Source: Longimicrobiales bacterium
Lineage (GTDB): Bacteria; Gemmatimonadota; Gemmatimonadetes; Longimicrobiales; Gaopeijiaceae
Assembly (NCBI GenBank): GCA_965248195.1
Contig: CBDFIQ010000001.1
Coordinates: 1,376,001-1,440,000, forward strand
DNA length: 64,000 nucleotides
Direction: 5' to 3'
In this document: positions 7,750 to 56,889 of the stretch, one piece after another
How positions within the stretch are numbered: position 1 is the first letter of the stretch
Layout of the letters: every line of letters begins with the position of its first letter
The notes under the pieces: model-generated
The model's input: only the letters and a program-made list of their open reading frames with translations
What the model was told of the DNA's origin: nothing
Database searches by the model: none
Position numbers and translations under genes: made by a program

Positions 7750-10035
7750 ATGAGACGTCGCGGATATCTCGCCGGTTGGACTGCCACAGTCCTCCTTTCT
7801 CCGGCTGTTGCGAGCGCTCAGTCGATCGAAATCCACGGTCCGCCGGCCCCCACGGGCCGAGAGGTCGTCAGCTGGGACGCCGAGGGAAGAGCCACGGTGC
7901 GGGCGACCCGCGCACTGGTGCCCATGTCGATCGACGGGGTTCTGGACGAGCCCTTCTACCGCTCGACCGCCTCGATACCGAACCTCAAGCAGAGTCTGCC
8001 GACGCCCGGCGCGGAGCCGGCGGAGCGCACGGAGACGTGGATCGGATTCGACGACAACAACATCTATGTCGCCGCACGCCTCTGGGACTCAGCACCGGAG
8101 ACCGAGTGGACCGCGAACGAGATGCGGCGCGATGCGAGCACCATCCGGACGAACGACAACTTCGGAGTGTTCCTCGACACCTATTACGACCGTCGCAACT
8201 CGATCGGGCTCTACGTGACCCCGGTGGGCGGCTTCACAGACCTGCAGATGACGAACGAGGGCAGCCCCAATTTCGACTGGAACGCCGTCTGGGACATCCG
8301 CACGGGTCGCTTCGATGGTGGCTGGACCGTGGAAATCGCGATCCCCTTCAAGTCGCTTCGTTATCGAGCCATCCGAGAGCAGGTCTGGGGTTTGCAACTG
8401 CGGCGCTTCCACGTGCGCAACAACGAATGGAGTCACCTCACGACGCTTCCGTTGTCCGTCACGGGAAACGGCCCTTCGGCCATCTTGCGGATGTCGATGT
8501 ATGGAACGCTCGTCGGTGTCGAGGCGCCGGGGGCCAGCATGAATCTCGAAGTGAAGCCCTACGTGGTCTCCGGGCTCCAGACGGATCGGACCGCCAATCC
8601 CGTCGTGGACAACGAGACCCACGCCAGGGCGGGCCTGGACGTCAAGTACGGGATCACGGAGAATCTCACCGCCGATCTCACCTTCAACACCGACTTCGCG
8701 CAGGTCGAGGTGGACGAGCAGCAGGTCAACTTGACGCGCTTCAGCCTCTTCTTTCCCGAAAAAAGGGAGTTCTTCCTCGAGAGCCGGGGGAACTTCGAGT
8801 TCGGGAGGGGCGGGAGCAGGGGCGGCTTCGGTGGAGGCGGTGCTCCGACATTGTTCTACAGCCGACGGATCGGGCTCCAGAGTGGCCGGCTCATCCCGAT
8901 CATCGCCGGGGGGCGCGTGACGGGGAAGGTCGGCGCGTTCGACATTGGGCTGGTCAGCTTACAGACCGACGACGAGCCGAACGTGAGCGCCGAGTCGACG
9001 AACTTCAGCGTGGTGAGAGTTCGCCGCGATGTGTTCGCCCGCAGCAGCATCGGGGTCCTCTTCGGCAACCGGTCCGCCTCGCTGGTCTCCAGCGGCGCGA
9101 ACCAGACCTACGGCGCGGACGCCTCGTTCTCATTCCTTCAGGACGCTTATCTATCGGGGTACTACGCCGGGACCGCCACGGAAGGCCTCAACGGGCACGA
9201 CCAAAGCTACCGGGCGCAAATGAGCTATGACGGTGATCTCTGGGGGGCGCGGCTCGACCATCTGCTGGTGGGTGACGACTTCAATCCGGAGATCGGGTTC
9301 GTGCGACGTGGCGGGTTCCGGCAGTCCGCTGCCTCCGCCTACTGGAGTCCCCGTCCCGGGGTCCGTTGGATACGGCAGCTCAGCTTCTCGGGGAGCTTCG
9401 ACTATTTCGAGAATGATCGGGCCGGGTTCGTGGAGAGCCGCAATGGAGGCGGGCACTTCAGCATCGAGCTCGAGAACAGTGACCGGTTCTTCGCGGGCGT
9501 ATCCGACAGGTACGAGAACCTCCCGGTGGCTACCGGGATTTCTGGCGCCACGATCCCCGCCGGCCGGTACTCGTTCCGTGACGTTCAGGTGGGCTACACC
9601 TTCGGCTCGCAGCGACGAATTTCTGCCGGGCTATCGGTGCGCCGGGGCACGTTCTACACGGGCGAGATCACGTCGGTTAGCCTGAGTCGCGGTAGGATCG
9701 AAGTGCTGCCGCAGCTGTCCGTCGAACCAGGTATCACACTCAACTGGCTCGACCTCCCGGATCAGCAGACGTTCGCCGGCGAGTTCAATCAGCACGTGGT
9801 CACGACGCGCATCACGTATAGTTTGACGCCCCGCACCTTCTTGAGCGGCCTCGTGCAGTACAATTCGCGGGGCGACCTGCTCAGCGGCAACTTCCGTCTG
9901 CGCTGGGAGTGGGCTCCCGGCAGCGAGCTCTTCCTGGTCTACACGGAGGAGCGCTTCACGGAGACCCTCGACCGATGGGGGGACTTGGAGAACCGAGGCC
10001 TGGTGATCAAAGTGAACCGGCTGCTGAGGTTCTGA
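7750..10035 (+). CDS. CBM9-like / DUF5916 outer-membrane protein
   Basis: IDGVLDE, DWNAVW...GGWTVEIAIPFKSLRY, NTDFAQVEVDEQQVNLTRFSLFFPEKREFFLE; ends in Phe. Confidence 0.88.
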   Translation: MRRRGYLAGWTATVLLSPAVASAQSIEIHGPPAPTGREVVSWDAEGRATVRATRALVPMSIDGVLDEPFYRSTASIPNLKQSLPTPGAEPAERTETWIGFDDNNIYVAARLWDSAPETEWTANEMRRDASTIRTNDNFGVFLDTYYDRRNSIGLYVTPVGGFTDLQMTNEGSPNFDWNAVWDIRTGRFDGGWTVEIAIPFKSLRYRAIREQVWGLQLRRFHVRNNEWSHLTTLPLSVTGNGPSAILRMSMYGTLVGVEAPGASMNLEVKPYVVSGLQTDRTANPVVDNETHARAGLDVKYGITENLTADLTFNTDFAQVEVDEQQVNLTRFSLFFPEKREFFLESRGNFEFGRGGSRGGFGGGGAPTLFYSRRIGLQSGRLIPIIAGGRVTGKVGAFDIGLVSLQTDDEPNVSAESTNFSVVRVRRDVFARSSIGVLFGNRSASLVSSGANQTYGADASFSFLQDAYLSGYYAGTATEGLNGHDQSYRAQMSYDGDLWGARLDHLLVGDDFNPEIGFVRRGGFRQSAASAYWSPRPGVRWIRQLSFSGSFDYFENDRAGFVESRNGGGHFSIELENSDRFFAGVSDRYENLPVATGISGATIPAGRYSFRDVQVGYTFGSQRRISAGLSVRRGTFYTGEITSVSLSRGRIEVLPQLSVEPGITLNWLDLPDQQTFAGEFNQHVVTTRITYSLTPRTFLSGLVQYNSRGDLLSGNFRLRWEWAPGSELFLVYTEERFTETLDRWGDLENRGLVIKVNRLLRF

Positions 10036-10115
10036 CTGAGGCTTCTTCAGCCCGTCTCACCAGGGACTGGCCCGCGCCATTGCTGTTGCAGTGTGGCGAC
10101 TGGAGCCGCCCCGCA

Positions 10116-10215
10116 GCTTCATCCACGCCCCCCACGAGGGGGGGGCGACCAATACGAGCAACAAGGCCATCACCAAGGCACCGTTTCAATCCACGCCCCC
10201 CACTAGGGGGGCGAC
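10116..10215 (-). CRISPR. Type I-C mini-array: repeat (10183-10215), 33-nt spacer (10150-10182), degenerate repeat (10116-10149)
   Basis: Minus-strand repeat GTCGCCCCCCTAGTGGGGGGCGTGGATTGAAAC (I-C type hairpin, ATTGAAAC end); spacer GGTGCCTTGGTGATGGCCTTGTTGCTCGTATTG; second repeat GTCGCCCCCCCCTCGTGGGGGGCGTGGATGAAGC; 14 bp downstream of the cas7 stop. Confidence 0.93.
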
Positions 10216-10229
10216 TACTGCGTACACGC

Positions 10230-11084
10230 CTACTTCTCCAGCACCGTAACCCCATCAGGAATCCGGCTACCGTCCAGACTCACGTCGTAGTCGGCGTAGG
10301 ACCGAGGCACGTCAACGCCCTCCCGCTTCTGGATGATCAAGGCCTCGAACAGCTGGTGGGACGGCGCATTACCCAACGCGTCATCGTGCTCGAACACGAG
10401 GAGACGCCATTTGGCCATACTGCCTGGTGGACGGGCAGCCGACTGATCGAACTGGAACGCTCTATCGAGGGCCTGCCAGACCAGCTCGAGGTCCTCCTCG
10501 TCAAACCCCGTCTGATCCGCCAGGAAAGGATTCACGAAGCCGTGCGCCCGGTAGATGGCGTAAGGTACCGTGAACTTGCGGCCCATCGTCCGCTCCTTCT
10601 CCAAGTCCTTCACATTCGTCACGGAGCTACGCGTGATCGCATGCTCACTAGTTACGATCGGGTCGATCGACCGGGCGAAGGAAAGCTGAACCGGCCCACG
10701 GACCTGCCCACAGTTCACCTCAGTGCTCATCACTGCGCCAAACGTGCGGATGTCAAAGAAGTTGTGGCACATGAAGTCGGTGAGTGCCTGCGCCTTCTTC
10801 TGGTCCTTGGGGAGTCTCCTGGAGACCGGCTTCTCCCCAACGTGTTCGTATGCACGCTCATGGGTGTTGTTGAGCACGGCCTTGTCGGTGAAGTAGATCT
10901 CATGCCGCGGCTCGCTCGTTTTCGTGAGCGCCACGAAGTTACGAATCTTCCGCTTGAGGCAAACGTCGGTCACCAGTCCCTGCCCGGTCTCCGCGTCGAT
11001 GCGGGGGAGGTTCCCGGCATCGGGGTCCCCATTGGGGTTGGCATCGGTTACGTCGAACACGAAAATGAAGTCGTAGCGCTTCAT
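10230..11084 (-). CDS. cas7c: Type I-C Cascade backbone Cas7c/Csd2
   Basis: NPNGDPDAGNLPRID, TDVCLKRKIRN, FFDIRTFGAV, GQVRGPVQ, RTMGRK motifs. Confidence 0.97.
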   Translation of the reverse strand: MKRYDFIFVFDVTDANPNGDPDAGNLPRIDAETGQGLVTDVCLKRKIRNFVALTKTSEPRHEIYFTDKAVLNNTHERAYEHVGEKPVSRRLPKDQKKAQALTDFMCHNFFDIRTFGAVMSTEVNCGQVRGPVQLSFARSIDPIVTSEHAITRSSVTNVKDLEKERTMGRKFTVPYAIYRAHGFVNPFLADQTGFDEEDLELVWQALDRAFQFDQSAARPPGSMAKWRLLVFEHDDALGNAPSHQLFEALIIQKREGVDVPRSYADYDVSLDGSRIPDGVTVLEK

Positions 11085-12877
11085 GCGGCTGAGTTTGCTT
11101 CCGAGTTTTCGTTGCTCCTTCGCTTTGTGTAGAGAGCTCTCGTCTGGTGGTAGTACCCGAGGGCAAACAGGCCCTGTTCGTTGAGATTGAAATGAGCCGG
11201 AAAGCCATCGAGAGGATCGAGCACTTCCTGAAGGAGTCGCTCTCGGTTTGTTCGATGACCCCCATCCAGCTTCGCTAGATGGTGCTGGTAGGTGCGTAGC
11301 AAACGTGGGAAGACCGTACGGGGCATCGCCGCCGCCGAGCTGTAATAGCTGCCTCGGATCGTGTTGTTCAGCTTTCGGCCCAGGGCGTCCTTTTGAGTCT
11401 TCTCGATGGCCGCGAACGCTCGACCGAGCCGATACGCCGGGCTGGTGTTCTCCAAGTCCAGGCTCATACTCACCTCCTGGTGTTTGTTGCGGACGAGGTA
11501 CCCCTTGAGGACACAGGCACGGGGGTAATTGATCAAACGGTCGGTGTGGATTCGTCGAACTACGGCGCTGAACAGGCCCTGGGGATACGGGACGCCCTGA
11601 AGCACGGCCCGAAGGAGTGGGCCGGCAAGAACCGGAGGGATCTTCTCTCGGTCCGGCTTGCCCTGCTTGGTCGGACAGGTCTGGTCCAACAACATGCCGT
11701 ACGACGGAAATTCCGGATCCGCCCGTCGTTTTCCAGAAGCGGGCTGGGGCTCTGTGCCGCTATCATCGTGATGCTTCTTGAGGTTGTCGAGGAGATCGCG
11801 CACTGTACCCTGATGAAAGGACCGCACCGATATGCGAGCCGCATTCGGTGCGAGTCCCAACAGATAAAAGCCGGTTCTATCGGGGTCCTCATCGAGGGCT
11901 CCGTACCCACGTCCCGAGCGTAGAGCCCTCAAGAACATCTCGAACCTCGACTTCATGGCCTCGTCCTGAACGTCGCCGCCACTCGAACCGCGGCGGAGGT
12001 ATTGCGCGAGGCAATCCTCGACGGCACTCGGCTTGTCCGTCCAGAACACCACCGTGGTGGCTCCGAGTTGGATGCGGTGCTTGTCCCGCATCGGGCCTTC
12101 GAGAAGGGCGTTGAGGCCCGTGGCATACCGGAAAGCAGCTGATTCGGAGACGGGTGCGTTGTGGCTCTGCGTTTTGCCGAAGGACTCGTAAGCCCCTTCG
12201 TTGAACGAGACGAGGGTGGCGCCTGCGGACTGTGCGCCCGCTACGCCCTTGATCTTCGGGGAATGCGTCTTGGCCACCGGGCCGTATTCACCGGTAACGA
12301 GGCACTGGGCCTCAAAGTCCTCGGACCTTTCCTTCGTGTGGCTGGCCCACCAGGCTCTTACTTCCGGCACGTCATGGACGTAGCCGAGGTCGCCTTGGAT
12401 CTGGAAAACGCCGAACCCGGTGTTGGTGTGCTCCAGCACCGGAAACTGAGCAACGACATCATGGCCCGCAGCGGGATTCCAGTTGGTCAAGAAAGCACAC
12501 ACCGCAGAAAAAGTCGGCGCGTCGATCTCGGTATTCAGTCGGAGGTGCCGATCCCGAAACCCTTCGAAGGCTCTTAGCGCACGGGCACGCTTCTTGGGAT
12601 CGGCATCGTACCCCAGGAGGTAGGCCGTGTTGTCCCAGAGGAAACCGGGGTTGATTCCCGATCCGGAAGACTTCGCCTGCCCGGGCACGAGGACGCGTTG
12701 GGGGCGGAGCTTGCCCGCTTCGTTCTGCCGCGCGTCCTGAATGTCGAAGAGAGTCCCGTCGGGCCGCAGGACGATCTTGAAAGTGATCTTCTGCACGCTG
12801 TGGCCGAATGGAGGGATTTTGTAAGTGGTATCTTCGCTCAAACGATCATAGAGCGCGACCAGTGACTGTAGGATCAT
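11081..12877 (-). CDS. cas8c: Type I-C Cascade large subunit Cas8c/Csd1
   Basis: MILQSLVALYDRL, FLWDNTAYLLG, CLVTGE, LVSFN, LGLAPNAARISVR; internal MSLD start typical of Cas11c; EQGLFALGYYHQ. Confidence 0.97.
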   Translation of the reverse strand: MILQSLVALYDRLSEDTTYKIPPFGHSVQKITFKIVLRPDGTLFDIQDARQNEAGKLRPQRVLVPGQAKSSGSGINPGFLWDNTAYLLGYDADPKKRARALRAFEGFRDRHLRLNTEIDAPTFSAVCAFLTNWNPAAGHDVVAQFPVLEHTNTGFGVFQIQGDLGYVHDVPEVRAWWASHTKERSEDFEAQCLVTGEYGPVAKTHSPKIKGVAGAQSAGATLVSFNEGAYESFGKTQSHNAPVSESAAFRYATGLNALLEGPMRDKHRIQLGATTVVFWTDKPSAVEDCLAQYLRRGSSGGDVQDEAMKSRFEMFLRALRSGRGYGALDEDPDRTGFYLLGLAPNAARISVRSFHQGTVRDLLDNLKKHHDDSGTEPQPASGKRRADPEFPSYGMLLDQTCPTKQGKPDREKIPPVLAGPLLRAVLQGVPYPQGLFSAVVRRIHTDRLINYPRACVLKGYLVRNKHQEVSMSLDLENTSPAYRLGRAFAAIEKTQKDALGRKLNNTIRGSYYSSAAAMPRTVFPRLLRTYQHHLAKLDGGHRTNRERLLQEVLDPLDGFPAHFNLNEQGLFALGYYHQTRALYTKRRSNENSEANSAA

Positions 12878-12880
12878 GGC

Positions 12881-13597
12881 TCAGGCCCTGGCGCTCTCGA
12901 GCGCCGGGACGTCGAGCACACCGTCCTGCAATATCGCTCGGAAAAATCGCGGCTGAGCTGTCACCCGCCGTCCCTGACTGGACTCGATGACGGCACCTTT
13001 TGGATCCGGAATGAAAAGGTGATCGTGGAACAGGAACCCCAGATCCTTTGCGCCCCTCAACTCCGTGGGACACCCAGGAAACGAATCAAGGAGCTCAAAG
13101 CTCGCAGGGAACTCCCTGCACCCCAGGTAGGGGTGATGGAAGTACTGTCCCTTCCTGCCACGTCGCTTGAAGGTGTCCAGGTGCTTGGCCTCGGGGTTCG
13201 TTGTCCCAGCCTCCCCCTTGTCCGTCAGCTCCACGTGTGCCTGGATTCCGTAGGACACGTCCCGAAGTAGCAGGGCGGCTCTCTGCTGGCGGTGTTCGTC
13301 AACGGCCATGCCCAATCGCCCAGCACCAGCTTTCATTGCCGCCTCGACGCCAGACTTGCCCCGCATGGGGATCTTCGCGTCGATCTCGTTTCGCCGAATC
13401 TGCGTGCGCCGGATGGGAGCCAACACATGAATCCGGTCAACGACCCACCGCATTTCCGGTTTCCAGTAGATCGCCTCGAGAATGCCACGTGCCGCGCTGG
13501 GGGTCAGGATGTCGTAGGAAACCCGCTCCACTTTCATTTCAGGGCGGTTGAACGAAGCCAGATCCCCCCAAACCCTCAATCGCACGCCATAGGCCAT
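12881..13597 (-). CDS. cas5c: Type I-C Cas5c (Cas5d) pre-crRNA endoribonuclease
   Basis: VWGDLASFNRPEMKVERVSYDILTPSAARGILEAIYWKP, AKH, PYLGCREF; start at 13597 or 13609. Confidence 0.97.
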   Translation of the reverse strand: MAYGVRLRVWGDLASFNRPEMKVERVSYDILTPSAARGILEAIYWKPEMRWVVDRIHVLAPIRRTQIRRNEIDAKIPMRGKSGVEAAMKAGAGRLGMAVDEHRQQRAALLLRDVSYGIQAHVELTDKGEAGTTNPEAKHLDTFKRRGRKGQYFHHPYLGCREFPASFELLDSFPGCPTELRGAKDLGFLFHDHLFIPDPKGAVIESSQGRRVTAQPRFFRAILQDGVLDVPALESARA

Positions 13598-13707
13598 ACT
13601 GGACCCCATTCCCTCATCATCCCCACCACCCCGTCGTCACATGGTCGCCCGCACGTGGTCTCCTCCCGTCGCCGCGGTGGGGCCGCTTACGAGGGGATAC
13701 CTACTAA

Positions 13708-13734
13708 GACGTAGGGAAGGACGGGAAAGTTGCA
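13708..13734 (-). promoter_or_regulatory. Putative ECF-type promoter TGCAAC-N17-CGTC upstream of cas5c, overlapped by palindrome CCTAC-N6-GTAGG (13700-13715)
   Basis: Minus strand reads cTGCAACtttcccgtccttccctaCGTCttag; same boxes and spacing as 3968-3994. Confidence 0.55.
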
Positions 13735-13897
13735 GGAACGGGTCGAGGAGGGGCGGCTGCGGCGCGCCCGGCTAGAGGATGCTAGTCCCTCAGCTTAGTG
13801 CGGGAGCAGGCGGGATCGGGGACCTAGAGGCTCTACTTCACAGGAATTGCTGCAGTCGTGGCCAACAGGTCGTAGAGGATGGACATCTGGCAGTTCA

Positions 13898-15244
13898 TTA
13901 CCCTCTGAACGTAATGGGGACTTCGATCCATACGGCAACCGGCTCGGTTCCGTTCATAGCCGGGGTGAACCGCAAAACGTCCGCGACCCTGAGGGCAGCT
14001 TCGTCCAACTGCGCCCGGCCTGAAGTCCGGGAAACTCTCGCGTCCCCGACCACGCCGTCGTCGGAAATGAAGAACCAAACCCTCACCGTCCCACCGATTC
14101 CGGCATCCCGAAGCGCAGCGGGATACTCCCGCATCAGGGCTGCCTGGACCTCTTCCCGGTTTGTGATCTCCGGCCGGACGGTCATAGGTGTGAACACAGG
14201 ACCCGCCTGGACTGCCGCCGCGTCTCGCGACTCCACCTGAAGTGGCTCGGGGCTTGTCGTGGGCGCCGACTGACTCGCTGGCGGCTCGACCTCGACGATT
14301 GGCGGGTCCGCTTCTCCCGCCACCGGACTCGTCGGGGGGGCCATGGGCGGATCCACAGCACACGAAGCCACCACGAGCAGTGCTGCGAGCAGTGTCAGTC
14401 CGACGGTACGCGTGTACCGGGGGTCGCGAGTGTCGGTCATGGCAAGGATCCTCTGTTCGATCGATGGGATCGGGCGAGCGAAAGCCAGCGCGCTCAACCG
14501 TGAGGCCGTGCCTCGAGCGCCGATCTCAACAAGAAGCCTGGCGTACCGCTTCACGTCCGCCAATCGGTTAAGGACGCGATGGTCACAGTCGATCTCGATG
14601 GCCAGGCGAAGCCGGTGAACCTGCCACCAGAGAGGGAGGTTCCACGGAAGGAGCGTCAGAAGAAGAAGAGAGAGGCCTGCCAGGCGCGTATCGCCCGCGT
14701 TACAGTGCTCCCCTTCGTGCTGGAGCATCAACTCTTGCTCCCGCGGTGGCATGCCAAACGCCCAGCGCGGCATCACGATCACCGATCGGATCCATCCCAC
14801 GACGCCGGGGCCGAGGTCTTCCGAAACCAGAACGTCCCGGCCATGGAGTTCCGACGGCGTCCAAGTGGACCGGTCCGACCGAAGCCGCAGGTGGGCCCGC
14901 AGGAGGACCGCGGCAACCGCAAGAGTCAGCACCACCCAGCCTGCACCGAGCAGCGTGTCGAGGCCAATGCCGGAGGGTGACGCATCCGCCAACCGCGTAA
15001 TGGAGCCGACGACGGGGATCAGAAGAGCGTCGAGTGGAGTGGAGACGACCGTGCCAAGTGGGAGCGCAGAGGCCGGCGGACGTAGGATCGCGACGAGCGT
15101 ATAGCCGAACGACCCGGCCATCGCTCCAGCCCAGATCCAACGCGTGGGAAAAGCGAACACCCGAACGGCGCGTTCGAAGGCCCACGCCGCTAGTCCCAGA
15201 AGAAGGCTCACGCTCATCACATAGACCATCAGGCTCAATAGCAT
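13898..15244 (-). CDS. BlaR1-like M56 peptidase fused to a TonB C-terminal domain
   Basis: TM N-terminus, HEGEH, PWNLPLWW...EIDCD (M56); YPAALRDAGIGGTVRVWFFI...FTPAMNG..PVAVWIEVPITF (TonB_C). Confidence 0.92.
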   Translation of the reverse strand: MLLSLMVYVMSVSLLLGLAAWAFERAVRVFAFPTRWIWAGAMAGSFGYTLVAILRPPASALPLGTVVSTPLDALLIPVVGSITRLADASPSGIGLDTLLGAGWVVLTLAVAAVLLRAHLRLRSDRSTWTPSELHGRDVLVSEDLGPGVVGWIRSVIVMPRWAFGMPPREQELMLQHEGEHCNAGDTRLAGLSLLLLTLLPWNLPLWWQVHRLRLAIEIDCDHRVLNRLADVKRYARLLVEIGARGTASRLSALAFARPIPSIEQRILAMTDTRDPRYTRTVGLTLLAALLVVASCAVDPPMAPPTSPVAGEADPPIVEVEPPASQSAPTTSPEPLQVESRDAAAVQAGPVFTPMTVRPEITNREEVQAALMREYPAALRDAGIGGTVRVWFFISDDGVVGDARVSRTSGRAQLDEAALRVADVLRFTPAMNGTEPVAVWIEVPITFRG

Positions 15245-15633
15245 CAGTCTTCCTCCCCTTCCGAGCCCTCACCCAGACGCTCGTCGACGAGTTGGCGCAG
15301 CCGGTGGAGTTCCCGTTCGTCCATGCCACGGTCGGAAACGAGTTGGACCAGGAGCAACTCTGGCGAGCCCTTGAATACCTTCTTCACGAGCCGCCGTAGC
15401 TCCCGCCGGCCTGCCGCCGTCCAGTCCACGAGAGCGTAGTAACGGTAGGCCCGCCCCTCCGCCTCATGCCGCACATACCCCTTCTCCCTGAGCGTCCTCA
15501 GCACGGAGAGCACCGTCGTGTAGGCGAGGGGATCGCCCAATCGCTCCTGGACCTCTGCGACCGTTGCGGAGTCCAGATCCCAGAGGATGGACATCACGTC
15601 CAGTTCGCGGGGTGTGAAGGTGTCCGGCGGCAT
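15244..15633 (-). CDS. BlaI/MecI/CopY family repressor
   Basis: FTPRELDVMSILW...LAYTTVLSVLRTLREKGYV...GRAYRY. Confidence 0.95.
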   Translation of the reverse strand: MPPDTFTPRELDVMSILWDLDSATVAEVQERLGDPLAYTTVLSVLRTLREKGYVRHEAEGRAYRYYALVDWTAAGRRELRRLVKKVFKGSPELLLVQLVSDRGMDERELHRLRQLVDERLGEGSEGEED

Positions 15634-35284: not shown

Positions 35285-36109
35285 GTGCCGGCGTGGACGA
35301 TGAGGCGGGCTCAGGGGTCTAGTTTGCTCAAAGTCCTGACGGTAGCTGTGGCGTCAGCCGTCGGGATTTTCCTCTCCGGCTCTCACTTCGCGGTTGAGGG
35401 CCAAGCGGGTGCATCTCTGACGGGCATCGTACTGCAGGAGGGGAGCGACCAACCGCTTCCCGGCGCCACGCTCGTGATTCTGGAGACGCGGCGATCGGTC
35501 GTGACTGATGACAACGGGGAGTTTTCCTTCCTCGAGCTTACACCGGGCGAGGTTGTGCTGAGAGCCGGTCTCGACGGCTATGCGTCTGTGGTGGAGTCGC
35601 TGGAGATCGCTTCGAACGAGGTAGGGTTCGTGCAGCTCAGGCTCCCGCCCCTCTTCGCGGCCCTGGATGAGATTTTCGTGATAGCCGAGGAAAGTTCACG
35701 TCGAGCCGGCTACCAGGAAGCGTCGGTCCAAAACGACGATGGCAATATTGGGACTGCAGCGGACCTCCTCGAAGGGAAGGTGCTCGGACTGGATCTTCGG
35801 CGAAACACGGGTGTGGCAGGTGGCGGAGCGAGAGTTCAGCTGCGCGGCCCGAGCTCCCTGTCCCTGAGCAACGAGCCTGTCATATACGTGGATGGGATTC
35901 GGATCTCTTCGCGGATCGGGAGCCTCGACTCCAGAAACTCCGCCGGCCTCCATGCGCTCGAAATGATTCCCGCCAGTGCCGTAGAGCGCATTCGTGTTCT
36001 CCGAGGTCCCTCGGCCGGGGCGCAGTATCAGGATGCGACTAACGGAGTGATCCTTATCGAGACACGCCAGGGTCGATCTGGCGACAGAGACGCTGGCGGA
36101 AGCAACTGA
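35285..36109 (+). CDS. Carboxypeptidase-regulatory-like domain plus TonB-receptor plug domain protein (no barrel)
   Basis: PLPGATL...TDDNGEF; LRGPSSL...EPVIYVDGIR; ERIRVLRGPSA..Y...NGVILIET. Confidence 0.8.
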   Translation: MPAWTMRRAQGSSLLKVLTVAVASAVGIFLSGSHFAVEGQAGASLTGIVLQEGSDQPLPGATLVILETRRSVVTDDNGEFSFLELTPGEVVLRAGLDGYASVVESLEIASNEVGFVQLRLPPLFAALDEIFVIAEESSRRAGYQEASVQNDDGNIGTAADLLEGKVLGLDLRRNTGVAGGGARVQLRGPSSLSLSNEPVIYVDGIRISSRIGSLDSRNSAGLHALEMIPASAVERIRVLRGPSAGAQYQDATNGVILIETRQGRSGDRDAGGSN

Positions 36110-46845: not shown

Positions 46846-49800
46846 ATGTATCGACTCAATTGTTCGTATGTGATCCGAGGCCTGGGCGCGGGTGCGATGG
46901 CCTTCTTGCTCGTAGTGCCGAGTATCGGCGCGCAGCAGGGCGGTACCGTCACTGGTCGGATACTGGACGCGCGGACCGGGGCGCCGTTGGCGGCGGCCCA
47001 GATCTTCATCTCCGCATTGGATTTGGGCGGCCTGACGCAACAGAACGGCCGCTATCTACTCCAAAACGTGCCTGCGGGCACCCACACGCTGACCGTGGCC
47101 CGCATCGGGTACCGGACGGTAGATGCGCAGGTCTTGGTCGGTGGCGGTCAAACGGTCGAGCAGAATTTCGACCTCGCCGAGGAAGCCCTGGCGCTCGACG
47201 AGATAATCGTCACGGGTACCCCCGGCGGCACTCAGCGGCGCGCCATCGGGAACACGGTCCAGCAGGTGGACGCGAGTGTGATCGCCCAGGACGTCGCCAT
47301 CACGAACTTCCAGGACTTGCTGACCGCACGGAGCACCGGCCTCCGGTTCACCGCGCGGGTAGGCAGCGTGGGTGCCGGCGGGCAGATCATGATCCGGGGC
47401 GCCGGAAGCTTCGACAACGAGCGCAGTGAGCCCCTCATCTACGTTGACGGTATCCGGGTCAACAACTCCTCCCAGGTCGGGCCGGCAACGGGAGAAGGGA
47501 GACTCTCGTCCGCCCTCAACGACTTCAACCCCGAGGATGTCGAGAGCATCGAGATTATCAAGGGACCGGCCGCCGCAAGCCTTTACGGAACCGAGGCGTC
47601 GGCGGGCGTGATCCAGATCATCACGAAGAGGGGACAGCAGGGCGCGCCCCAGTTCAACGTCTCTGTGCGCCAGGGGGTCAACTGGCTGCCCAACCCGGCT
47701 GGCCAGGTAGGCACGCAATGGACGTGCCCCACGGATTCGAGCCCCGGCCCGGTCGAATGTGAGAACGAGGCGGACCTCGTCTCGTACAACATGTACGACG
47801 AGAGCACCCGCTACATTCGCGAGGGCTACTTCGACTGGCCCACCCCGAACCTCTATCAGTACGGTCACAGCCAGAGTTACAACGTGGACGTTCGGGGAGG
47901 GGCGGAGTCGATCCGGTACTTCCTTTCGGCCAACGTCGACGATGAGGAAGGCATCGTCTGGTTCAACACAAACGAGGTGGTCCGGCTGCGCGCTAACATC
48001 GGCCTGATCTTGAGTGAGAACCTCTCCCTCGACGTCTCCACGGGGTACACGGACGGCGATACGAGGTACGCGCTGCCTGTCGGGGGCGACGGCGGCATCT
48101 GGCAGGATCTGCTCTGGTCCAACGGATTCTTCTTGGACCGTGTCACGCCGTTCTCCGATATCGAGGGTGCCCCCCGCACGGGCGGCTATCAGGAGCACCT
48201 GCCTACGGACGTCGCGGAGGTTGAGGCCACCCGGGACTTCGCCCGCTTCACAGGATCGGCGACGATGAGCTTCAACATCGATGACTTTTCCGTGGGAAGG
48301 CTCGGGACCCTCGGGATTTCGCAGCGGCTGGTCGCCGGCATCGACCGGGGATGGGACGTCAACCGGGAGTTCTACCCTCTGGAAGACGGCATCGTGCCTG
48401 AGCACCTGACGCAGTTTACGGACGAATGGGATAATGTCTTTACCGAGACGTTGGAGGGCGAGTTGGTCTACGAGCGGCCCATCCAAACGAATACCAGCCT
48501 CGACTACTCGCTCACGGCGGACCTGAACGTGAACGAGACGTGGCGCTTCCGGACGTCGGCCGGAGTCCAGTACTACGTGGATAAGCGGGACTTCTTCTCG
48601 AACTCCGGAAACGGGTTCGCCTCGACGCTGTCGACCACGATCAACCAGATTTCCCAGTCCCAGATAAGGACCTCGTTTGAGCTCATCGAAAACAAGTCCC
48701 TGGGCTTCTACGTCCAGGAGGAGGTGGGCTGGAACGATCGGCTCTTCGTGACGGGTGCCGTGCGTTTCGACGACAACTCGACTTTCGGCGTCGACGCCCC
48801 GGCACAGAGATACCCGAAGGTGTCGGGCACGTGGGTGATTTCCGAGGAGGCCTTCTGGAACTTCGACTTCGTGAGCTCACTCCGGCTGCGAGGGGCGTGG
48901 GGGAAGGCCGGTCGCCAGCCGAATTCCACTTCAAGCCAGAACATCTACATAGCGATTCCCGGGCCGGGCGGAGCCGCGGCCATCCGGCCGGAGAGCCCGG
49001 GCAACCCGGGAATCGAGCCGGAGGTGAGCACCGAGATCGAGTTGGGGTTCGACTTCGCCATACTGGACGATCGGATCTCGGGCCAGTTCACGAACTACCA
49101 GAGGAAGGACGAGCAGGCGTTGCTCGGGGTGGATATCGACCCCAGCTTCGGCTTCCCGGGTTCGGTCCAGCAGAACGTGGGCCGGATCGACAACTGGGGC
49201 TGGGAGGCGCTGCTGAGTGCCCGGCTCTACGAGAGCGGGAGCCTCACCTTCGACCTCGACCTTACCGCCGACTACACGAACAACGAGATCAAGTCCCTGG
49301 GCAACTTCCCGGGTTCGGAAAGAATCAGGATCGGCTACCCATATCCGAACTACATCGTAGACAACTTGATTACGCGGGCGGAGTTCGACCCTGCCGGCGA
49401 GTACGCGAACGTATTCAACAGGAATCTGAATGGGTGGTGCGACCCAGGGGTCCCGACGGGCCCGACCTCTCAGCACGGACTGGTGCCCGGCGGCGATGAG
49501 GTGCCCTGCCAGGACGCCCAGAACCCGATAATCCTGGCCGGGGGGGCGTTCGTAAACCACACATTCACTGTGGCGCCCAGGGTCGGCCTACTCGGGGGCG
49601 ACCTCCAGATCTTCGCGCTGGCGGAGGGTCAGTACGGCCGGACTCACCAGGATAGAGCCCATCTGTGGAGCCACGCCTACAGGAACTCGATGGCCACCAG
49701 GCTCGAAAACATCCCCACCTTTGCGCTCAACGAACGGATCAACGGAAACAGCCCGGCCTGGGGTAAAGGCCTTTTCAAAGCGGACTTTTGGAAGCTGCGT

Positions 49801-50037
49801 GAAGTCGGCGCCCGGTACACGGTTCCCGAGTCGCTGGTCCAGAAGATCGGGGGCGAGCGGGCTTCCTTCAGTTTCTCGGCGCGCAACCTCTGGACGATAT
49901 GGCGGTTGGAGGACAACCTCACGGGCGTGGTGCTCAGCGATCCCGAAACTGGGGATCCGGGCGACCTCGATAGCGGCGGCGTCTACTCCACGCCGCCTAT
50001 GGCCAGCGTGCACATGACGGTACGGATCGCCTTCTGA
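46846..50037 (+). CDS. SusC/RagA-like TonB-dependent outer-membrane receptor
   Basis: GGAGG RBS; CarboxypepD_reg-like N-terminus; LDEIIVTG; plug (PEDVESIEIIKGPAAASLYG...GVIQIITK); NPGIEPE; ends in Phe. Confidence 0.93.
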   Translation: MYRLNCSYVIRGLGAGAMAFLLVVPSIGAQQGGTVTGRILDARTGAPLAAAQIFISALDLGGLTQQNGRYLLQNVPAGTHTLTVARIGYRTVDAQVLVGGGQTVEQNFDLAEEALALDEIIVTGTPGGTQRRAIGNTVQQVDASVIAQDVAITNFQDLLTARSTGLRFTARVGSVGAGGQIMIRGAGSFDNERSEPLIYVDGIRVNNSSQVGPATGEGRLSSALNDFNPEDVESIEIIKGPAAASLYGTEASAGVIQIITKRGQQGAPQFNVSVRQGVNWLPNPAGQVGTQWTCPTDSSPGPVECENEADLVSYNMYDESTRYIREGYFDWPTPNLYQYGHSQSYNVDVRGGAESIRYFLSANVDDEEGIVWFNTNEVVRLRANIGLILSENLSLDVSTGYTDGDTRYALPVGGDGGIWQDLLWSNGFFLDRVTPFSDIEGAPRTGGYQEHLPTDVAEVEATRDFARFTGSATMSFNIDDFSVGRLGTLGISQRLVAGIDRGWDVNREFYPLEDGIVPEHLTQFTDEWDNVFTETLEGELVYERPIQTNTSLDYSLTADLNVNETWRFRTSAGVQYYVDKRDFFSNSGNGFASTLSTTINQISQSQIRTSFELIENKSLGFYVQEEVGWNDRLFVTGAVRFDDNSTFGVDAPAQRYPKVSGTWVISEEAFWNFDFVSSLRLRGAWGKAGRQPNSTSSQNIYIAIPGPGGAAAIRPESPGNPGIEPEVSTEIELGFDFAILDDRISGQFTNYQRKDEQALLGVDIDPSFGFPGSVQQNVGRIDNWGWEALLSARLYESGSLTFDLDLTADYTNNEIKSLGNFPGSERIRIGYPYPNYIVDNLITRAEFDPAGEYANVFNRNLNGWCDPGVPTGPTSQHGLVPGGDEVPCQDAQNPIILAGGAFVNHTFTVAPRVGLLGGDLQIFALAEGQYGRTHQDRAHLWSHAYRNSMATRLENIPTFALNERINGNSPAWGKGLFKADFWKLREVGARYTVPESLVQKIGGERASFSFSARNLWTIWRLEDNLTGVVLSDPETGDPGDLDSGGVYSTPPMASVHMTVRIAF

Positions 50038-52289: not shown

Positions 52290-52609
52290 GGAGGGGCGAG
52301 TTCTACCGAGTGCGGAGGCCCGACGGAGAAAAGCGCGATTCCCGAGTCTACGTGGTCGTTAGCCGGCAGGCCCTAGTCGACTCGCGTTTCGCTACCGTAG
52401 TCTGTGCGCCCATCTACTCACGGGGCGATGGGCTCTCCACCCAGGTTCCGGTTGGGCCTGATCAAGGCCTGAAGCACGATTCGTGGATCATGTGCGACAA
52501 CCTCGTGAGCGTTCAGAAGGCGCGGCTGACTGACTACGTCGGTTCCCTGACCGGGGTGCTCGCCTCCAAGCTAAATCGCGCCTTGAGGAGTGCCTTGGAC
52601 CTACTTTGA
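52286..52609 (+). CDS. mazF: PemK/MazF family toxin
   Basis: MRRGEFY...RVYVVVSRQ...VVCAPI...GLKHDS.IMCDNL.SV.K..L...VGSL. Confidence 0.88.
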
Positions 52610-52782
52610 GTACTGGGAGGCGAGGTCGGCTCGATCCGAAGGGCACGGCGGACGGGCACGATGGTCGCAATTCAAGGGGACCGAAGTCTCTTTCCTTGCG
52701 TGACGAGCAGGAAACCACATATTCTTGCCCGAACAACCCCCGATCTGCGGTTTCGCGAGAGGGGGATCAAGGCGAGGTGTTA

Positions 52783-55383
52783 ATGCGCGCACTCCAGACG
52801 TCCGTCGGTCTGATTCCCGCTGCGTTCCTGGTGGTCACGGTCGTGACGGCCACCGGCGCCGAAGCCCAGAATCCCGCCACATTCACCAGCGACATCCGAC
52901 CCATCATGGAGCGGAGCTGCTGGGGCTGTCATGGTGACGAGTTCCAGCGGTCCGGTCTCGACCTGCGTACCCGCGATGACGCGATTTTGGGAGGCATAAG
53001 CGGCCCCGCGATCGTGCCCGGACGCGCCGAAGAGAGTCTGTTCTACCGGATGATAGCGGGGCTCGATGAGCCCCTGATGCCGAGGGATGGTCCGTCCTTG
53101 ACCACGGCCGAGATCGCCGCGGTGCGGGCGTGGATCGATGGCGGTGCGCACTGGGACGAGGGACCGACTGTGGCCGTGGCCGCGGATGCGGTCGAGGAAC
53201 TTCCCCCCGGAGCTCGCGAGGCCTGGGCCTTCCAGCTCCCGGTGCAGGGTACCGTTCCCACGGCATCACCGTTCGAGCATCCCATCGATCGTTTCCTCGA
53301 GCAGACGCGCCAGGCCCAGGGCCTAACCGCGGCGCCGCATGCCGATCGCCGCACGCTGCTCAGGCGCGCGCACCTCGATCTGATCGGGTTGCCGCCCACG
53401 CCAGAGGAAACCGCGGAGTTCCTGGCCGACCCGAGGTCCGACGCGTGGGAGCGTGTGATCGAGCGGCTCCTTGCTTCCCCACACTACGGCGAGCGTTGGG
53501 GACGCCACTGGCTCGACGTAGCGCGCTACGCGGACTCGGACGGCTTCGAGCAGGACTACGACCGACCCAACGCGTGGCGATATCGCGACTACGTCATTTC
53601 CGCGTTCAATGACGACAAACCCTTCGACCGGTTCATTGTAGAGCAGATCGCCGGCGACGAGCTCGACTGGGCAACCGACGAGACCCGAATCGCCACCGGC
53701 TTCCTGCGCGCCGGTCCCCGCGTGCACTTCCGTGAGAAAGACAACCCGGAGCGGCGGTACGAGTACCTGGACGACATCCTCGCCACGCTCGGCCGCGGAG
53801 TGCTCGGGCTGACGGTTCAGTGCGCGCGCTGCCACGATCACAAGTTCGATCCGATTCTCCAGACCGACTACTACCGTCTGGCGACGTCCATCTTTGGATA
53901 CGTCGAAACCGAGTATCCGCTGCTCCCGCGCGCGGAGGGCGAGGCGTACCGGGCGAAGATCGCGGACATCGCTGAGCGGCAACGCGTTCTGAGAGATCAG
54001 GTGGCCGAGATCGAAGCGCCCTACCGCGAGCGACTGAAGATCGAGCGCCTGGAACGCGAATTTCCTGCGGATGTGCTGCGCGCGGTGCAGAAGCCCGAGA
54101 GCGAGCGCACGCCGGGAGAGAAGCTCCTCGCCGATCAGGTTCTCTCCCTCGGTGTGTCCGGGGCGCTCGTGGCCGCGGCGCTGACACCGGAAGATGCCGC
54201 CCGACAGAAAGCGTTGATTGATGGCATCGCCGACGTGGAGCAGGAGCGGCCTGCACGGCCGCCCATGGCCGACATCGTGACCGACGGAGACCACCGATTC
54301 ACTCCGGACGGGCCCGGCGACGAGATCATCGGCTGTCCAGAGTGCCGCACGCCTCCGGACACGCCCGGCAGCTACTTGCACGAGGGTCCGGGACGGTACG
54401 AGGTGCCGACGAGTAACCTTCTCATCCGCGGCGATCCCTTCAGCCTGGGACCGGTGATGTCGCCTGGCTTCGTGAAGGTCGCGACCTACGGCGATCCGCC
54501 GACGGAGATTTCGCGGCCTGACGGGCGCACGTCCGGCCGCCGCCTGGCGCTCGCGGAGTGGCTGACCTCCGAGGGGAACCCGCTGACGGCACGCGTGCTG
54601 GTGAACCGGATTTGGCACCATCACTTCGGACGCGGCATCGTCGCAACGCTCGACAACTTCGGAGCGGTCGGCGATCCTCCGACCCATCCCGAGCTCCTCG
54701 ACTGGATGGCGATCGAGTTCGCGAGCAACGGCTGGAGCATCAAGCAGATGCACCGCTTGATGATGACCTCCGAGGCCTACCAGATGGCGTCTGCGTACGA
54801 GGATGCGGGCAACATCGCCAACGATCCGGAGAACTTCAGCCTCTGGCGCTTCCGCATTCGGCGGCTCGAGACCGAGATATTGAGAGACGCCATCATGGCT
54901 TCGAGCGGAGGCATCGACCTCACCGTCGGCGGACCGCCCGTGTTCCCATACGTACCCGAGGAGATCCTGGCGGGTCAGGCGCACGGTCGCTGGGACAACC
55001 AGCCGGACGGCCCCGCCGTATGGCGCCGCAGCGTCTACGTCTATCGACGTCGTTCGCTGGTCTTTCCGTTCTTCGAGACGTTCGACCTCCCCGACCAGGG
55101 CGTGACGACGGCTGCTCGCAACGTGTCCACGGTGGCCACGCAGGCGCTGACCCTTCTCAACAATCCGTTCGTGCTCGGGCAGGCCGGCATGTTCGCGGAG
55201 CGACTGGAGAGGGAGGCGCCGAACGACGTGGCGGGGCAGGTCGATCTAGCGTACCGCATCGCGTTGGCGAGGTCTCCCACGGAAGCGGAGGCGGAGATCG
55301 GCGGTCATTTCGTCGCGGAGCGGTCCCTGGTGGATCTAACACACGTGATATTCAACTTGAGCGAGTTCCTCTACCTGAGGTGA
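52783..55383 (+). CDS. PSD1 / planctomycete cytochrome c protein (DUF1549 + DUF1553)
   Basis: CWGCH; SPHYGERWGRHWLDVARYADS; CARCHDHKFDPI; NPLTARVLVNRIW; PTHPELLDW. Confidence 0.93.
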   Translation: MRALQTSVGLIPAAFLVVTVVTATGAEAQNPATFTSDIRPIMERSCWGCHGDEFQRSGLDLRTRDDAILGGISGPAIVPGRAEESLFYRMIAGLDEPLMPRDGPSLTTAEIAAVRAWIDGGAHWDEGPTVAVAADAVEELPPGAREAWAFQLPVQGTVPTASPFEHPIDRFLEQTRQAQGLTAAPHADRRTLLRRAHLDLIGLPPTPEETAEFLADPRSDAWERVIERLLASPHYGERWGRHWLDVARYADSDGFEQDYDRPNAWRYRDYVISAFNDDKPFDRFIVEQIAGDELDWATDETRIATGFLRAGPRVHFREKDNPERRYEYLDDILATLGRGVLGLTVQCARCHDHKFDPILQTDYYRLATSIFGYVETEYPLLPRAEGEAYRAKIADIAERQRVLRDQVAEIEAPYRERLKIERLEREFPADVLRAVQKPESERTPGEKLLADQVLSLGVSGALVAAALTPEDAARQKALIDGIADVEQERPARPPMADIVTDGDHRFTPDGPGDEIIGCPECRTPPDTPGSYLHEGPGRYEVPTSNLLIRGDPFSLGPVMSPGFVKVATYGDPPTEISRPDGRTSGRRLALAEWLTSEGNPLTARVLVNRIWHHHFGRGIVATLDNFGAVGDPPTHPELLDWMAIEFASNGWSIKQMHRLMMTSEAYQMASAYEDAGNIANDPENFSLWRFRIRRLETEILRDAIMASSGGIDLTVGGPPVFPYVPEEILAGQAHGRWDNQPDGPAVWRRSVYVYRRRSLVFPFFETFDLPDQGVTTAARNVSTVATQALTLLNNPFVLGQAGMFAERLEREAPNDVAGQVDLAYRIALARSPTEAEAEIGGHFVAERSLVDLTHVIFNLSEFLYLR

Positions 55384-55386
55384 GGC

Positions 55387-56889
55387 ATGGGTCATCAGTG
55401 CCATAAACACGAGAAGACGTTTTGGTCGCGTCGCGACTTCCTCTTTCAGTCGGGCGGCGGGATAGCTGGATTGGCGTTCGCCAATCTACTCGAACACGAG
55501 GGACTGCTGGCGGCCGAGCGGGCGGGGCTGACGGGGGTCCCGCAAGTCCCCGGGCCGTGTGATGAAGCTGTACCGGGCAACCCGTTCGCGCCGAGGGCGC
55601 CGCACTTTGCTCCACGCGCCACCGCCGTGATCTCGCTTTTCATGAGCGGCGGAGTAAGCCACGTCGACACCTTCGATCCGAAGCCGGCGCTCACGAGGTA
55701 CGCGGGGCAGCCGCTGGACAGCCACATCGATGGAAACATCGTCGTCCGTCAGGGCTACCCGGGTCCGTTGATGCCGAGCCCGTTTTCGTTCGACCGCTAC
55801 GGTGAGAGCGGGATCGAGGTATCCGAGATCTTTCCCCACATCGCGAAGCACGTCGACGAGATCGCCTTCATACGCTCGGTGTACGGGCGATCGAACGATC
55901 ACGTCCAGGCGACGTACGAGATGCAGACCGGCCAGATCCGCATGGGCTTTCCGAGTGTGGGCTCGTGGGTGACGTACGGTCTCGGGTCGGAGAGCTCGAG
56001 CTTGCCGGCCTTCGTCGTGATGACCGACTATCGGGGCGGTCCCCTCGGTGGTCCCAACGACTGGGCCGCTGGCTTCATGCCGGCGAGCTACCAGGGCACG
56101 CAGTTCCGAGCCTCCGGGGACCCGATCGTTGACCTGGAGCCCCCTCAAGGGATGACGCCGGAGGCGCAACGCGCTCGCCTGGACGTGCTGGCGAAGCTGA
56201 ACGAGATGGACATGGAAAAGCATCCCGGCAACTCCGAGCTCGCGGCTCGCATCTCGTCGTACGAGCTCGCCTACCGGATGCAAGGTTGTGCTCCGGAGGC
56301 AATCGACGTGTCGTCGGAGTCCGAGTTGACGAAGAAGCTCTACGGTCTCGACAACGAAATCACCGAACCATTCGGGCGGCAGTGCCTGATGGCGCGGCGG
56401 CTCGTCGAGCGCGGCGTCCGCTTCGTGCAGCTCTTCCAGGGCGGCCTCGGCAATCAGAACACCGACACGTGGGATGCCCACAGCAACCTCGTGGAGAATC
56501 ACACACAGCACGCCGCCGAGTCGGATCTCCCGATCGCCGGCCTGTTGACGGACCTCAAGGCGCGCGGGCTCCTGGATACGACGCTCATCGTGTGGCACGC
56601 GGAATTTGGACGGATGCCGATCTCGCAGCGTGGCGTAGGCCGCGACCATAACCCCGGCGCCATGACGGCTTGGATGGCCGGCGCGGGAATCCGCGGCGGG
56701 CAAGTCATCGGTGCAACCGACGATTTCGGCTACAAGGCTCTGGAACAGCCCGTCTCGGCGCACGACCTGCACGCGACCATGCTCCACCTGCTGGGCATGG
56801 ACCATGAGGAGCTGACGTACCGATTCAGTGGCCGCGACATGCGGCTCACGGACGTGGCCGGCACGCTGATACCGCAGATCGTCGGCTGA
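55387..56889 (+). CDS. DUF1501 domain protein (Tat substrate)
   Basis: SRRDFL; FMSGGVSHVDTFDPKP; ARRLVERGVRFVQ; EFGRMP; GRDHNP. Confidence 0.93.
   Translation: MGHQCHKHEKTFWSRRDFLFQSGGGIAGLAFANLLEHEGLLAAERAGLTGVPQVPGPCDEAVPGNPFAPRAPHFAPRATAVISLFMSGGVSHVDTFDPKPALTRYAGQPLDSHIDGNIVVRQGYPGPLMPSPFSFDRYGESGIEVSEIFPHIAKHVDEIAFIRSVYGRSNDHVQATYEMQTGQIRMGFPSVGSWVTYGLGSESSSLPAFVVMTDYRGGPLGGPNDWAAGFMPASYQGTQFRASGDPIVDLEPPQGMTPEAQRARLDVLAKLNEMDMEKHPGNSELAARISSYELAYRMQGCAPEAIDVSSESELTKKLYGLDNEITEPFGRQCLMARRLVERGVRFVQLFQGGLGNQNTDTWDAHSNLVENHTQHAAESDLPIAGLLTDLKARGLLDTTLIVWHAEFGRMPISQRGVGRDHNPGAMTAWMAGAGIRGGQVIGATDDFGYKALEQPVSAHDLHATMLHLLGMDHEELTYRFSGRDMRLTDVAGTLIPQIVG

Follow-up and report, generated by a model that had tools for sequence, protein, structure and literature searches.

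Natural regulation by type I CRISPR-Cas systems, as known from CreA and CreR, serves the CRISPR locus itself, and whether self-matching CRISPR spacers mean regulation or autoimmunity is a long-standing question. The CreR and CreA guides are reported to occur in complete systems bearing Cas3 and to target the cas promoter or the promoter of a neighbouring toxin (bioRxiv 10.1101/2023.03.10.532045; PMC8501985; bioRxiv 10.1101/2023.03.03.530964), and regulatory mini-arrays as a rule match their targets only in part (bioRxiv 10.1101/2023.03.03.530964). It has been reported that deletion of cas3 in E. coli turns Cascade into a repressor, by which sites within open reading frames (ORFs) are silenced moderately (PMC4288209, PMC4288158). 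In Bacteroidetes, dCas12f-sigmaE guides with matches of 13-14 bp act on susCD operons (PMC13472631). Cas3-less type I derivatives in the literature include type I-C CRISPR-associated transposons (CASTs) and HNH variants (PMC12669027), and an incomplete type I-C system with a Cas8-Cas5 fusion is said to 'function as a DNA binder' (PMC10910872). Here we describe a Cas3-less type I-C Cascade operon with a one-spacer mini-array, the spacer of which resembles the 5' ends of susC genes of the same genome. The operon lies in a stretch of 64,000 nt (hereafter the window; positions 1,376,001 to 1,440,000 of contig CBDFIQ010000001.1, assembly GCA_965248195.1) of a Longimicrobiales bacterium, a soil/sediment-type member of the Gemmatimonadota, whose genome (G000) comprises 4.86 Mb in 2 contigs and is 91.8% complete according to marker genes. 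Coordinates without a prefix refer to the window.

The type I-C Cascade operon and its mini-array

The operon is located on the minus strand in the order cas5c-cas8c-cas7 (13609-10230), followed by a repeat, a spacer and a degenerate repeat (10215-10115). The gene cas5c (12881..13609, 242 aa; PF09704 E=7e-39; TIGR01876 153 bits against a cut-off of 85) encodes the subunit of type I-C Cascade that acts as endonuclease on the precursor of the CRISPR RNA (crRNA). The large subunit, which reads the protospacer adjacent motif (PAM), is encoded by cas8c/csd1 (11081..12877, 598 aa; PF09709 E=3e-164; TIGR01863 475 bits against 219) and equals in length its canonical sister in locus L063, and the backbone subunit is encoded by cas7/csd2 (10230..11084, 284 aa; PF05107 E=5e-99; TIGR02589 356 bits against 182). 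All three proteins were full length against the Pfam and NCBIfam type I-C models, and every column that is invariant in 29 canonical relatives was kept in G000 (47/47 in Cas5c, 57/57 in Cas8c and 62/62 in Cas7, 166/166 altogether). The Cas8c alignment showed no conserved internal Met column that could mark the start of Cas11c.

The array begins only 14 nt after the cas7 stop codon, as read from the sequence of the linker (10216..10229, minus strand). A leader is absent from this place, where canonical relatives have cas4-cas1-cas2 and a leader; since the leader is missing, the array is probably co-transcribed with cas5-8-7. Scans for sigma-70 promoters and terminators yielded no usable prediction for the promoters of susC or cas, and only three public runs that are possibly RNA contained the locus, each with a small share of it. 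Repeat A (10183..10215, minus strand) is a regular 33-nt type I-C repeat, nearly identical to the repeats of family relatives and the sole copy within 3 mismatches in a whole-genome search; its GC hairpin and ATTGAAAC 3' end are of the same type as those of the relatives. The single spacer of 33 nt (10150..10182, read as crRNA from the minus strand) occurs only once in the window. It is followed by repeat B (10115..10149, minus strand), a terminal-type repeat in which the hairpin is kept and the last ~7 nt are degenerate, as in the terminal repeats of the canonical arrays L012 and L083; in this genome it contains two extra C. Both repeat hairpins were predicted in the transcript, so that repeat A would provide the 5' handle of the crRNA and repeat B its 3' hairpin. 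Two repeats, one of them degenerate, within a cas locus is also the layout of the CreR and CreA mini-arrays.

The genes for target destruction and spacer acquisition were searched for in the whole genome. No match was obtained for Cas1 (PF01867), Cas2 (PF09827) or the HD domain of Cas3 (PF18019), and the best score for the Cas3 core (cas3_core, TIGR01587) was 26 bits against a cut-off of 102. Similarly, tblastn of the genome with Cas3, Cas4, Cas1 and Cas2 of L063, the nearest canonical system, gave no match, and the Cas5, Cas8c and Cas7 proteins of L063 did match this locus in the same search. A crude k-mer screen for a second CRISPR array gave only repeats with periods divisible by 3, which have the appearance of tandem repeats in coding sequence. 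Thus, no interference-competent system with Cas3 and an ordinary array was found in the genome alongside the mini-array.

Most relatives of the operon belong to complete systems. Type I-C Cas7 was found in 0 of the 11 other species of the genus, and Cas8c in 7 of 150 other genomes of the family, in all seven of which cas3 adjoins cas5. Six of these seven loci have the full cas3-5-8-7-4-1-2 set, five with arrays running to the contig end, and the seventh ends after cas7 at the end of its contig. The 37 loci collected from GTDB genomes were canonical where the flanks allow a judgement, except L098 and partly L076 (no cas3 in 9 kb upstream) and L070 (without cas4 and cas1); the same applies to 33 metagenome loci, none of which was closer than 59% identity. 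The nearest relative, L063, belongs to the Gemmatimonadota, has the canonical layout and shares 63% identity in Cas8c. As the relatives are canonical nearly throughout, the Cas3-less state is rare and derived. In a tree of the concatenated Cas5-8-7 proteins (31 taxa; 7 of the 37 loci lacked a complete sequence for one of the three proteins and were left out), G000 and its canonical sister had terminal branches of 0.338 and 0.320, respectively.

Another type I-C locus that lacks both Cas3 and the adaptation genes was noticed in L098 (8273-12110), on contig PDZV01000034.1 of a Magnetococcales metagenome-assembled genome. Its cas5-cas8c-cas7 genes are directly followed by six repeat-like units with a period of 58-63 nt, in which the 3' handle (GCGCGGATTGAAAC) is kept, the hairpins differ and the spacers are short and irregular. 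The flanks are housekeeping genes, and the branch is twice as long as that of the canonical sister L084. BLAST of this array against its own genome gave only chance-level matches, located in the repeat parts, a result that neither supports nor opposes a role of the present locus at susC.

About half of the 31-mers of the locus were present in public runs from eight other studies. Contigs, not reads, of four runs from four studies (X4, X7, X8 and X9) were mapped on window positions 9500-14300. One X8 contig of 4037 nt extends from the DUF5916 gene that flanks the array through the array, cas7 and cas8c into cas5, and contigs of X7 and X9 extend from cas8c through cas5 to blaR1, the flanking gene on the other side, with no cas3 between cas5 and blaR1. 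The same layout without Cas3 and adaptation genes is thus found in strains diverged by ~2%. The Cas3-free state of the Cascade, which the original prediction had read from the window, was confirmed by the profiles, by tblastn and by these contigs; the single spacer was likewise found as described there, and it lies between a regular and a 3'-degenerate type I-C repeat.

Among the differences listed between the strains (40 of 179 over a stretch of 4.8 kb), 25 are substitutions in the cas genes, of which 17 are synonymous and 8 non-synonymous (two of the 8 in one codon). For these listed substitutions pN/pS is ~0.15, with an expected neutral ratio of 1:3.2 (binomial p=4e-6). The listed cas8c indels are of 15, 9 and 9 nt, and listed indels of 1-2 nt in 10036-13894 are confined to the region of repeat B and the cas5-blaR1 gap. 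These sequence data suggest that the nuclease-free Cascade looks maintained by selection.

Spacer matches at the 5' ends of susC genes

The original prediction had matched the spacer to the start of a SusC-like gene of the same window and taken this copy as an unlikely target. The match was reproduced: the site at 46885..46917 (plus strand; C1:1422885) agrees with the spacer at 25/33 positions and at 20/22 over positions 12-33, starts in frame, 39 nt downstream of the ATG (46846), is preceded by CTG and has six mismatches within the PAM-proximal positions 3-11. The gene (46846..50037, plus strand, 1063 aa) does encode a receptor of the SusC/RagA family of TonB-dependent receptors, with CarbopepD_reg, Plug and barrel domains in Pfam and 381 bits for TIGR04056 against a cut-off of 368.

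The chance level was determined by a Hamming scan of the spacer against the entire genome (4.86 Mb, both strands). The background ended at 22/33 (15 sites), and above it, besides the spacer itself, only four sites remained, with 25, 25, 26 and 27 of 33 positions; log-linear extrapolation of the tail predicts ~0.26 sites at 25/33, 0.06 at 26/33 and 0.016 at 27/33. The best total was found at C2:641335 (27/33, 5' flank TTC, mismatches at 3, 7, 14, 21, 27 and 31). It was followed by C2:635280 (26/33, 5' flank TTC), which is perfect over the first 17 nt and has its mismatches at 18, 19, 24, 25, 27, 31 and 32, and by C1:294634 on the minus strand (25/33, 5' flank TTC) and the window site. All four sites are codons 14-24 of SusC/RagA receptor genes, with the ATG 39 nt upstream and the same 12 bases following. 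Since the outlier sites fall on the same codons of paralogous genes, the resemblance is due to homology and not to chance.

TTC is the canonical PAM of type I-C systems and stands 5' of the protospacer on the spacer-like strand (PMC5602111); this motif was adopted from that source and not derived from the present clade. It directly precedes three of the four own sites. When contiguous PAM-proximal matches were counted at every genomic TTC with every sixth position skipped, C2:635280 was alone in having a long match, of 18 positions (position 18 skipped), the runner-up reaching 10. At C2:641335, the mismatches at 3, 7 and 14 oppose a guide T to a target C, which corresponds to U:G in the hybrid. 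Complementarity is graded over the family: PAM and 17 bases at one susC, wobble-type seed mismatches at two, and the PAM lost at the fourth. Judged by its CTG flank and by the better TTC-bearing matches elsewhere, the window copy is not the best target, in agreement with the original prediction, and its site is probably not bound.

The same prediction had expected the target in a susC paralog elsewhere in the genome. Better matches with TTC do exist at C2:641335 and C2:635280, in addition to the 25/33 match with TTC at C1:294634; the expected near-perfect match is absent. A near-perfect self target was therefore rejected, as the best matches are 27/33 and 26/33 and each extant paralog has at least 6 mismatches. 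Autoregulation in the manner of CreR was also rejected, since the genome-wide scan for TTC plus seed found only the susC site C2:635280, and no match with a PAM to the cas promoter or an adjacent toxin promoter near the cas operon. A foreign target, the outcome named beforehand as speaking against a host target, was rejected as well: the phage and plasmid collections gave chance-level matches only (E of 0.3 or more), and a pattern scan of IMG/VR for the spacer gave 0 matches.

Three of the four susC paralogs are intact, with CarboxypepD_reg, Plug and barrel domains and TIGR04056 scores of 372, 408 and 381 bits against the cut-off of 368. An ORF of 530-546 aa follows each of them, and only one of these ORFs matches SusD_RagB (25.8 bits against a cut-off of 23.1), so that the SusD-like partner is only partly confirmed. 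The copy at C1:294k is split into an N-terminal ORF of 154 aa and an ORF of 749 aa (L018:4233-6805 = G000:C1:292233-294805, minus strand), owing to either a frameshift or an error of the assembly; the split concerns one of the spacer-like sites that bear a PAM. The paralogs share 50-53% protein identity, yet their first few hundred bases are 83-90% identical at the DNA level. The high-identity stretch covers the upstream region and the first ~300 nt (G000:C2:634980-635579 compared with C2:641076-641634, C1:294366-294755 and window 46896-47184), and such conserved 5' ends suggest gene conversion or a shared constraint.

Several other features were observed around these genes. A GC palindrome (GGCCCRCTCCCGGGCC) that is conserved between this genome and several species of the genus precedes the susC ATG by ~45-60 nt (L017:7180-7200 and other copies), and could be an operator or a 5'-UTR hairpin common to the family. 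Stand-alone ORFs of 274 and 247 aa, with CarboxypepD_reg and Plug domains and no barrel, occur at window 35285-36109 (plus strand) and L017:12247-12990 (minus strand), and one short ORF of this kind sits between two tandem susCD pairs. Starting 2.6 kb past the window susC and its following 542-aa ORF, a Planctomycete-type gene pair was found at 52606-56889 (plus strand), namely PSCyt1/PSCyt2/PSD1 (DUF1549/DUF1553) and then DUF1501.

The origin of the spacer was traced within the genus. In 7 of the 12 genus genomes, susC copies with the conserved stretch following the site are present (17 copies in all). Twelve of these 17 match the spacer at 24-29/33, and nine of the twelve have TTC; the best is a copy in G312 with 29/33 and TTC. 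The spacer reads GTA at positions 28-30, as do the four copies of this genome, and the eight such copies of other genus species read GTG, from which it follows that the guide was taken from the gene family of this lineage itself. The acquisition was PAM-dependent and dates from a time when the lineage still had Cas1, Cas2 and Cas4 at its disposal. The exact source copy is not among the extant susC genes: the PAM-proximal half of the spacer is identical to C2:635280, and the distal half has its closest counterparts in the window copy and C2:641335.

Furthermore, the protospacer is more variable than its surroundings among the own copies. In the three TTC-bearing copies, 12/33 columns of the protospacer and 27/189 flanking columns are variable (Fisher p=0.005), and with the window copy included the counts are 16/33 and 26/150 (p=0.0004). 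In the three tandem copies of the Cascade-free G312 they are 2/33 and 10/189 (p=0.69), and between species the protospacer segment is not less conserved than the flanks. This comparison was made post hoc on few sequences, and the divergence hot spot would fit either past escape from self-targeting or a tuning of binding strength.

The spacer itself differs among the strains at window 10152 (crRNA position 31, T to G in X4, X7 and X8) and 10156 (crRNA position 27, C to T in X7 and X8). Both changes are PAM-distal and lead toward C2:641335 as read in this genome, and positions 1-26 have no listed change. In X7 and X8 the stem of repeat B is without the two extra bases. For the suggestion that mini-arrays at orthologous loci might point to susC too, strains at ~2% divergence were the only ones available, and these carry the same spacer apart from the two substitutions.

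Possible functions of the locus

The reading that we favour, with a confidence a little short of even, is that of a domesticated type I-C Cascade without nuclease, which would bind the 5' ends of susC genes and damp their transcription. In this reading, Cas5c, Cas8c and Cas7 would be transcribed together with the mini-array, and Cas5c would cut out a single crRNA. The crRNA would pair with the template DNA strand inside the susC 5' end (+40 to +72, counted from the ATG), and the PAM would face the oncoming RNA polymerase from the promoter side; as the crRNA has mRNA sense, it cannot pair with the transcript. The strongest site would be the susC at C2:635241, through the PAM and the first 17 bases (18 positions if position 18 is skipped), and the susC at C2:641296 and the frameshifted copy at C1:294k would be weaker sites. 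A bound complex could not cut without Cas3 and would likely act as a graded transcriptional brake on the receptor operons. With selection acting on the Cascade, a single crRNA and the only non-chance matches at susC 5' ends, binding to susC is the most economical function, and since Cas3 is missing, a transcriptional brake is the expected consequence of binding. We infer crRNA maturation, susC binding, repression and the physiological role from sequence, and overall the interpretation given in the original prediction, a promoter-proximal roadblock at outer-membrane receptor genes, is partly supported. The SusC receptors may also be phage receptors.

Several facts weigh against this reading. 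A full-length target is lacking, the best total being 27/33. Two of the three PAM-bearing sites have seed mismatches at positions 3 and 7 (U:G type), and the best site pairs over positions 1-17 or 1-18 only, a short R-loop with which a type I-C Cascade may or may not stall RNA polymerase. The sites lie in coding sequence and not in a promoter; for E. coli, repression in ORFs is given as ~5-fold, and the papers disagree on strand preference (PMC4288209, PMC4288158). The locus is confined to one species-level lineage (0/11 other genus species), so that deep conservation is not seen. The pN/pS value comes from 25 listed substitutions, with 139 further differences over 4.8 kb outside the list, and X7, X8 and X9 carry the same variant, so that about three lineages are compared. 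Two of 33 spacer positions changed between strains, close to the neutral rate (6/76 in adjacent non-coding sequence), and the strain changes in the spacer therefore carry no statistical weight. Finally, neutral collapse of an array would also leave a spacer between a regular and a terminal-type repeat.

The main rival is that the locus is a scar of autoimmunity. A complete type I-C system would have taken up a susC spacer by mistake, and the survivors would have lost cas3 and then the adaptation genes and the other spacers, leaving an inert remnant. A self-derived spacer with a PAM is what accidental acquisition would give, and the last spacer of an array is what neutral collapse would spare. 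The six or more mismatches in each extant target and the local divergence hot spot fit escape from self-targeting; the lost PAM of the window copy and the frameshift of the C1:294k copy also speak for a scar, and the restriction to a single lineage is consistent with this view. Decay would be expected of an inert leftover, yet the Cas3-less layout is common to strains ~2% apart, the listed substitutions are 17 synonymous and 8 non-synonymous with only in-frame indels in cas8c, 166/166 invariant residues are kept and the branch is not lengthened. One inactivating event would also have been enough for escape; here cas3, cas4-cas1-cas2 with the leader, and all other spacers are gone, and exactly the Cascade and the self-matching guide are kept. 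We therefore consider a scar unlikely, while giving it real weight.

A functional Cascade for which susC of the chromosome is not the operative target is less probable still. Such a Cascade might bind incoming susC-like DNA from close relatives or elements, or work with an unnamed partner, and the chromosomal matches would be side effects. This could account for purifying selection on a Cascade that has no perfect chromosomal target, and the orthologues in other genus species do match better, up to the 29/33 with TTC in G312; nuclease-free interference by binding is mentioned for type IV and for subtypes V-C and V-M (bioRxiv 10.1101/2023.03.03.530964). On the other hand, the phage, plasmid and IMG/VR collections hold no match, the species-specific GTA codon ties the guide to the own copies, and one spacer without adaptation genes makes a poor defence. 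The surroundings of the locus offer no candidate partner gene either. The array is followed by a convergent DUF5916 gene (Pfam) that ends at 10035, and a blaI-like repressor gene and blaR1 (13898-15633, minus strand), the latter encoding a BlaR1 M56 peptidase fused to a TonB C-terminal domain, stand directly upstream of the cas operon, co-directional and separated from cas5 by 288 nt. Orthologues of blaI-blaR1 in other species of the genus (73-86% identity) have no cas genes adjoining, and the DUF5916 and blaI-blaR1 orthologues are present in the genus without cas genes and are not neighbours of each other there.

A CAST or another RNA-guided mobile element derived from type I-C, with the guide marking a homing site, is close to refuted: Cas3-less Cascades with short arrays are typical of CASTs, and a type I-C-derived variety is contained in the 2025 classification (PMC12669027), yet the Pfam scan of the 56 window ORFs (18 of them without any Pfam match at the thresholds applied) showed no transposase, TnsC or TniQ family, the cas insert of 3.9 kb sits between the ends of two ordinary chromosomal genes, and the matches fall within four paralogous genes and not next to an attachment site.

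Comparison with known systems

Compared with the canonical type I-C system (cas3-cas5-cas8c-cas7-cas4-cas1-cas2 and array; PMC5602111), the locus shares the Cas5c, Cas8c and Cas7 families, the repeat sequence and the PAM orientation, and differs by having lost cas3, cas4, cas1, cas2, the leader and all spacers but one. The incomplete type I-C system with the Cas8-Cas5 fusion (PMC10910872) is likewise a Cas3-less derivative; the subunits here are separate and of canonical length, and a host target can be named here, whereas the accessible text on the fusion system names none. A stand-alone Cascade with a named host-gene target was not found in the literature searched, as far as the main texts accessible to us go; the supplements of these papers may list similar loci.

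With CreR and CreA, the locus has in common a two-repeat mini-array in a cas locus, a crRNA-like guide, a Cascade acting as repressor (here proposed from sequence) and partial, PAM-proximal pairing. Unlike in those systems, Cas3, the adaptation genes and the ordinary array are gone, the guide is of full length (33 nt), and the matches are distant, inside the 5' coding end of host transporter genes. In the engineered E. coli type I-E CRISPR interference (CRISPRi) with cas3 deleted (PMC4288209, PMC4288158), binding is also PAM-dependent and lowers transcription; that system is man-made, of subtype I-E and directed at perfect matches, whereas the present one is natural, of subtype I-C and faced with mismatched targets, and its function is proposed. 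It is possible, if rather doubtful, that the locus is the first natural stand-alone type I 'CRISPRi' regulon, in which a Cascade has been kept for one self-derived guide whose graded match over the susC paralogs would set different receptor levels. In that case its position directly downstream of the blaI-blaR1(TonB_C) sensor pair could bring the cas operon under the influence of envelope signals. Should this be true, a compact three-gene type I-C Cascade that is naturally without Cas3 may also be of practical use for building repressors. With the immune functions lost, a Cascade that appears to be under purifying selection and a sole guide that points at host transporter genes, the locus makes regulation as the meaning of a self-matching spacer directly testable.

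The closest parallel in terms of target is the dCas12f-sigmaE system (PMC13472631), which is also an exapted nuclease-dead CRISPR effector with short host matches at susCD operons. That system belongs to class 2, works with a sigma factor and activates genes from targets upstream of them, whereas the effector of the present locus is a Cascade of class 1 to which no sigma factor gene is linked, the targets are situated within the beginning of the gene, and repression would be expected. If the favoured reading is true, the locus would be a class 1 counterpart, arisen independently in another phylum, of the control of susCD operons by dCas12f-sigmaE, which would suggest that RNA-guided control of outer-membrane uptake has evolved more than once.

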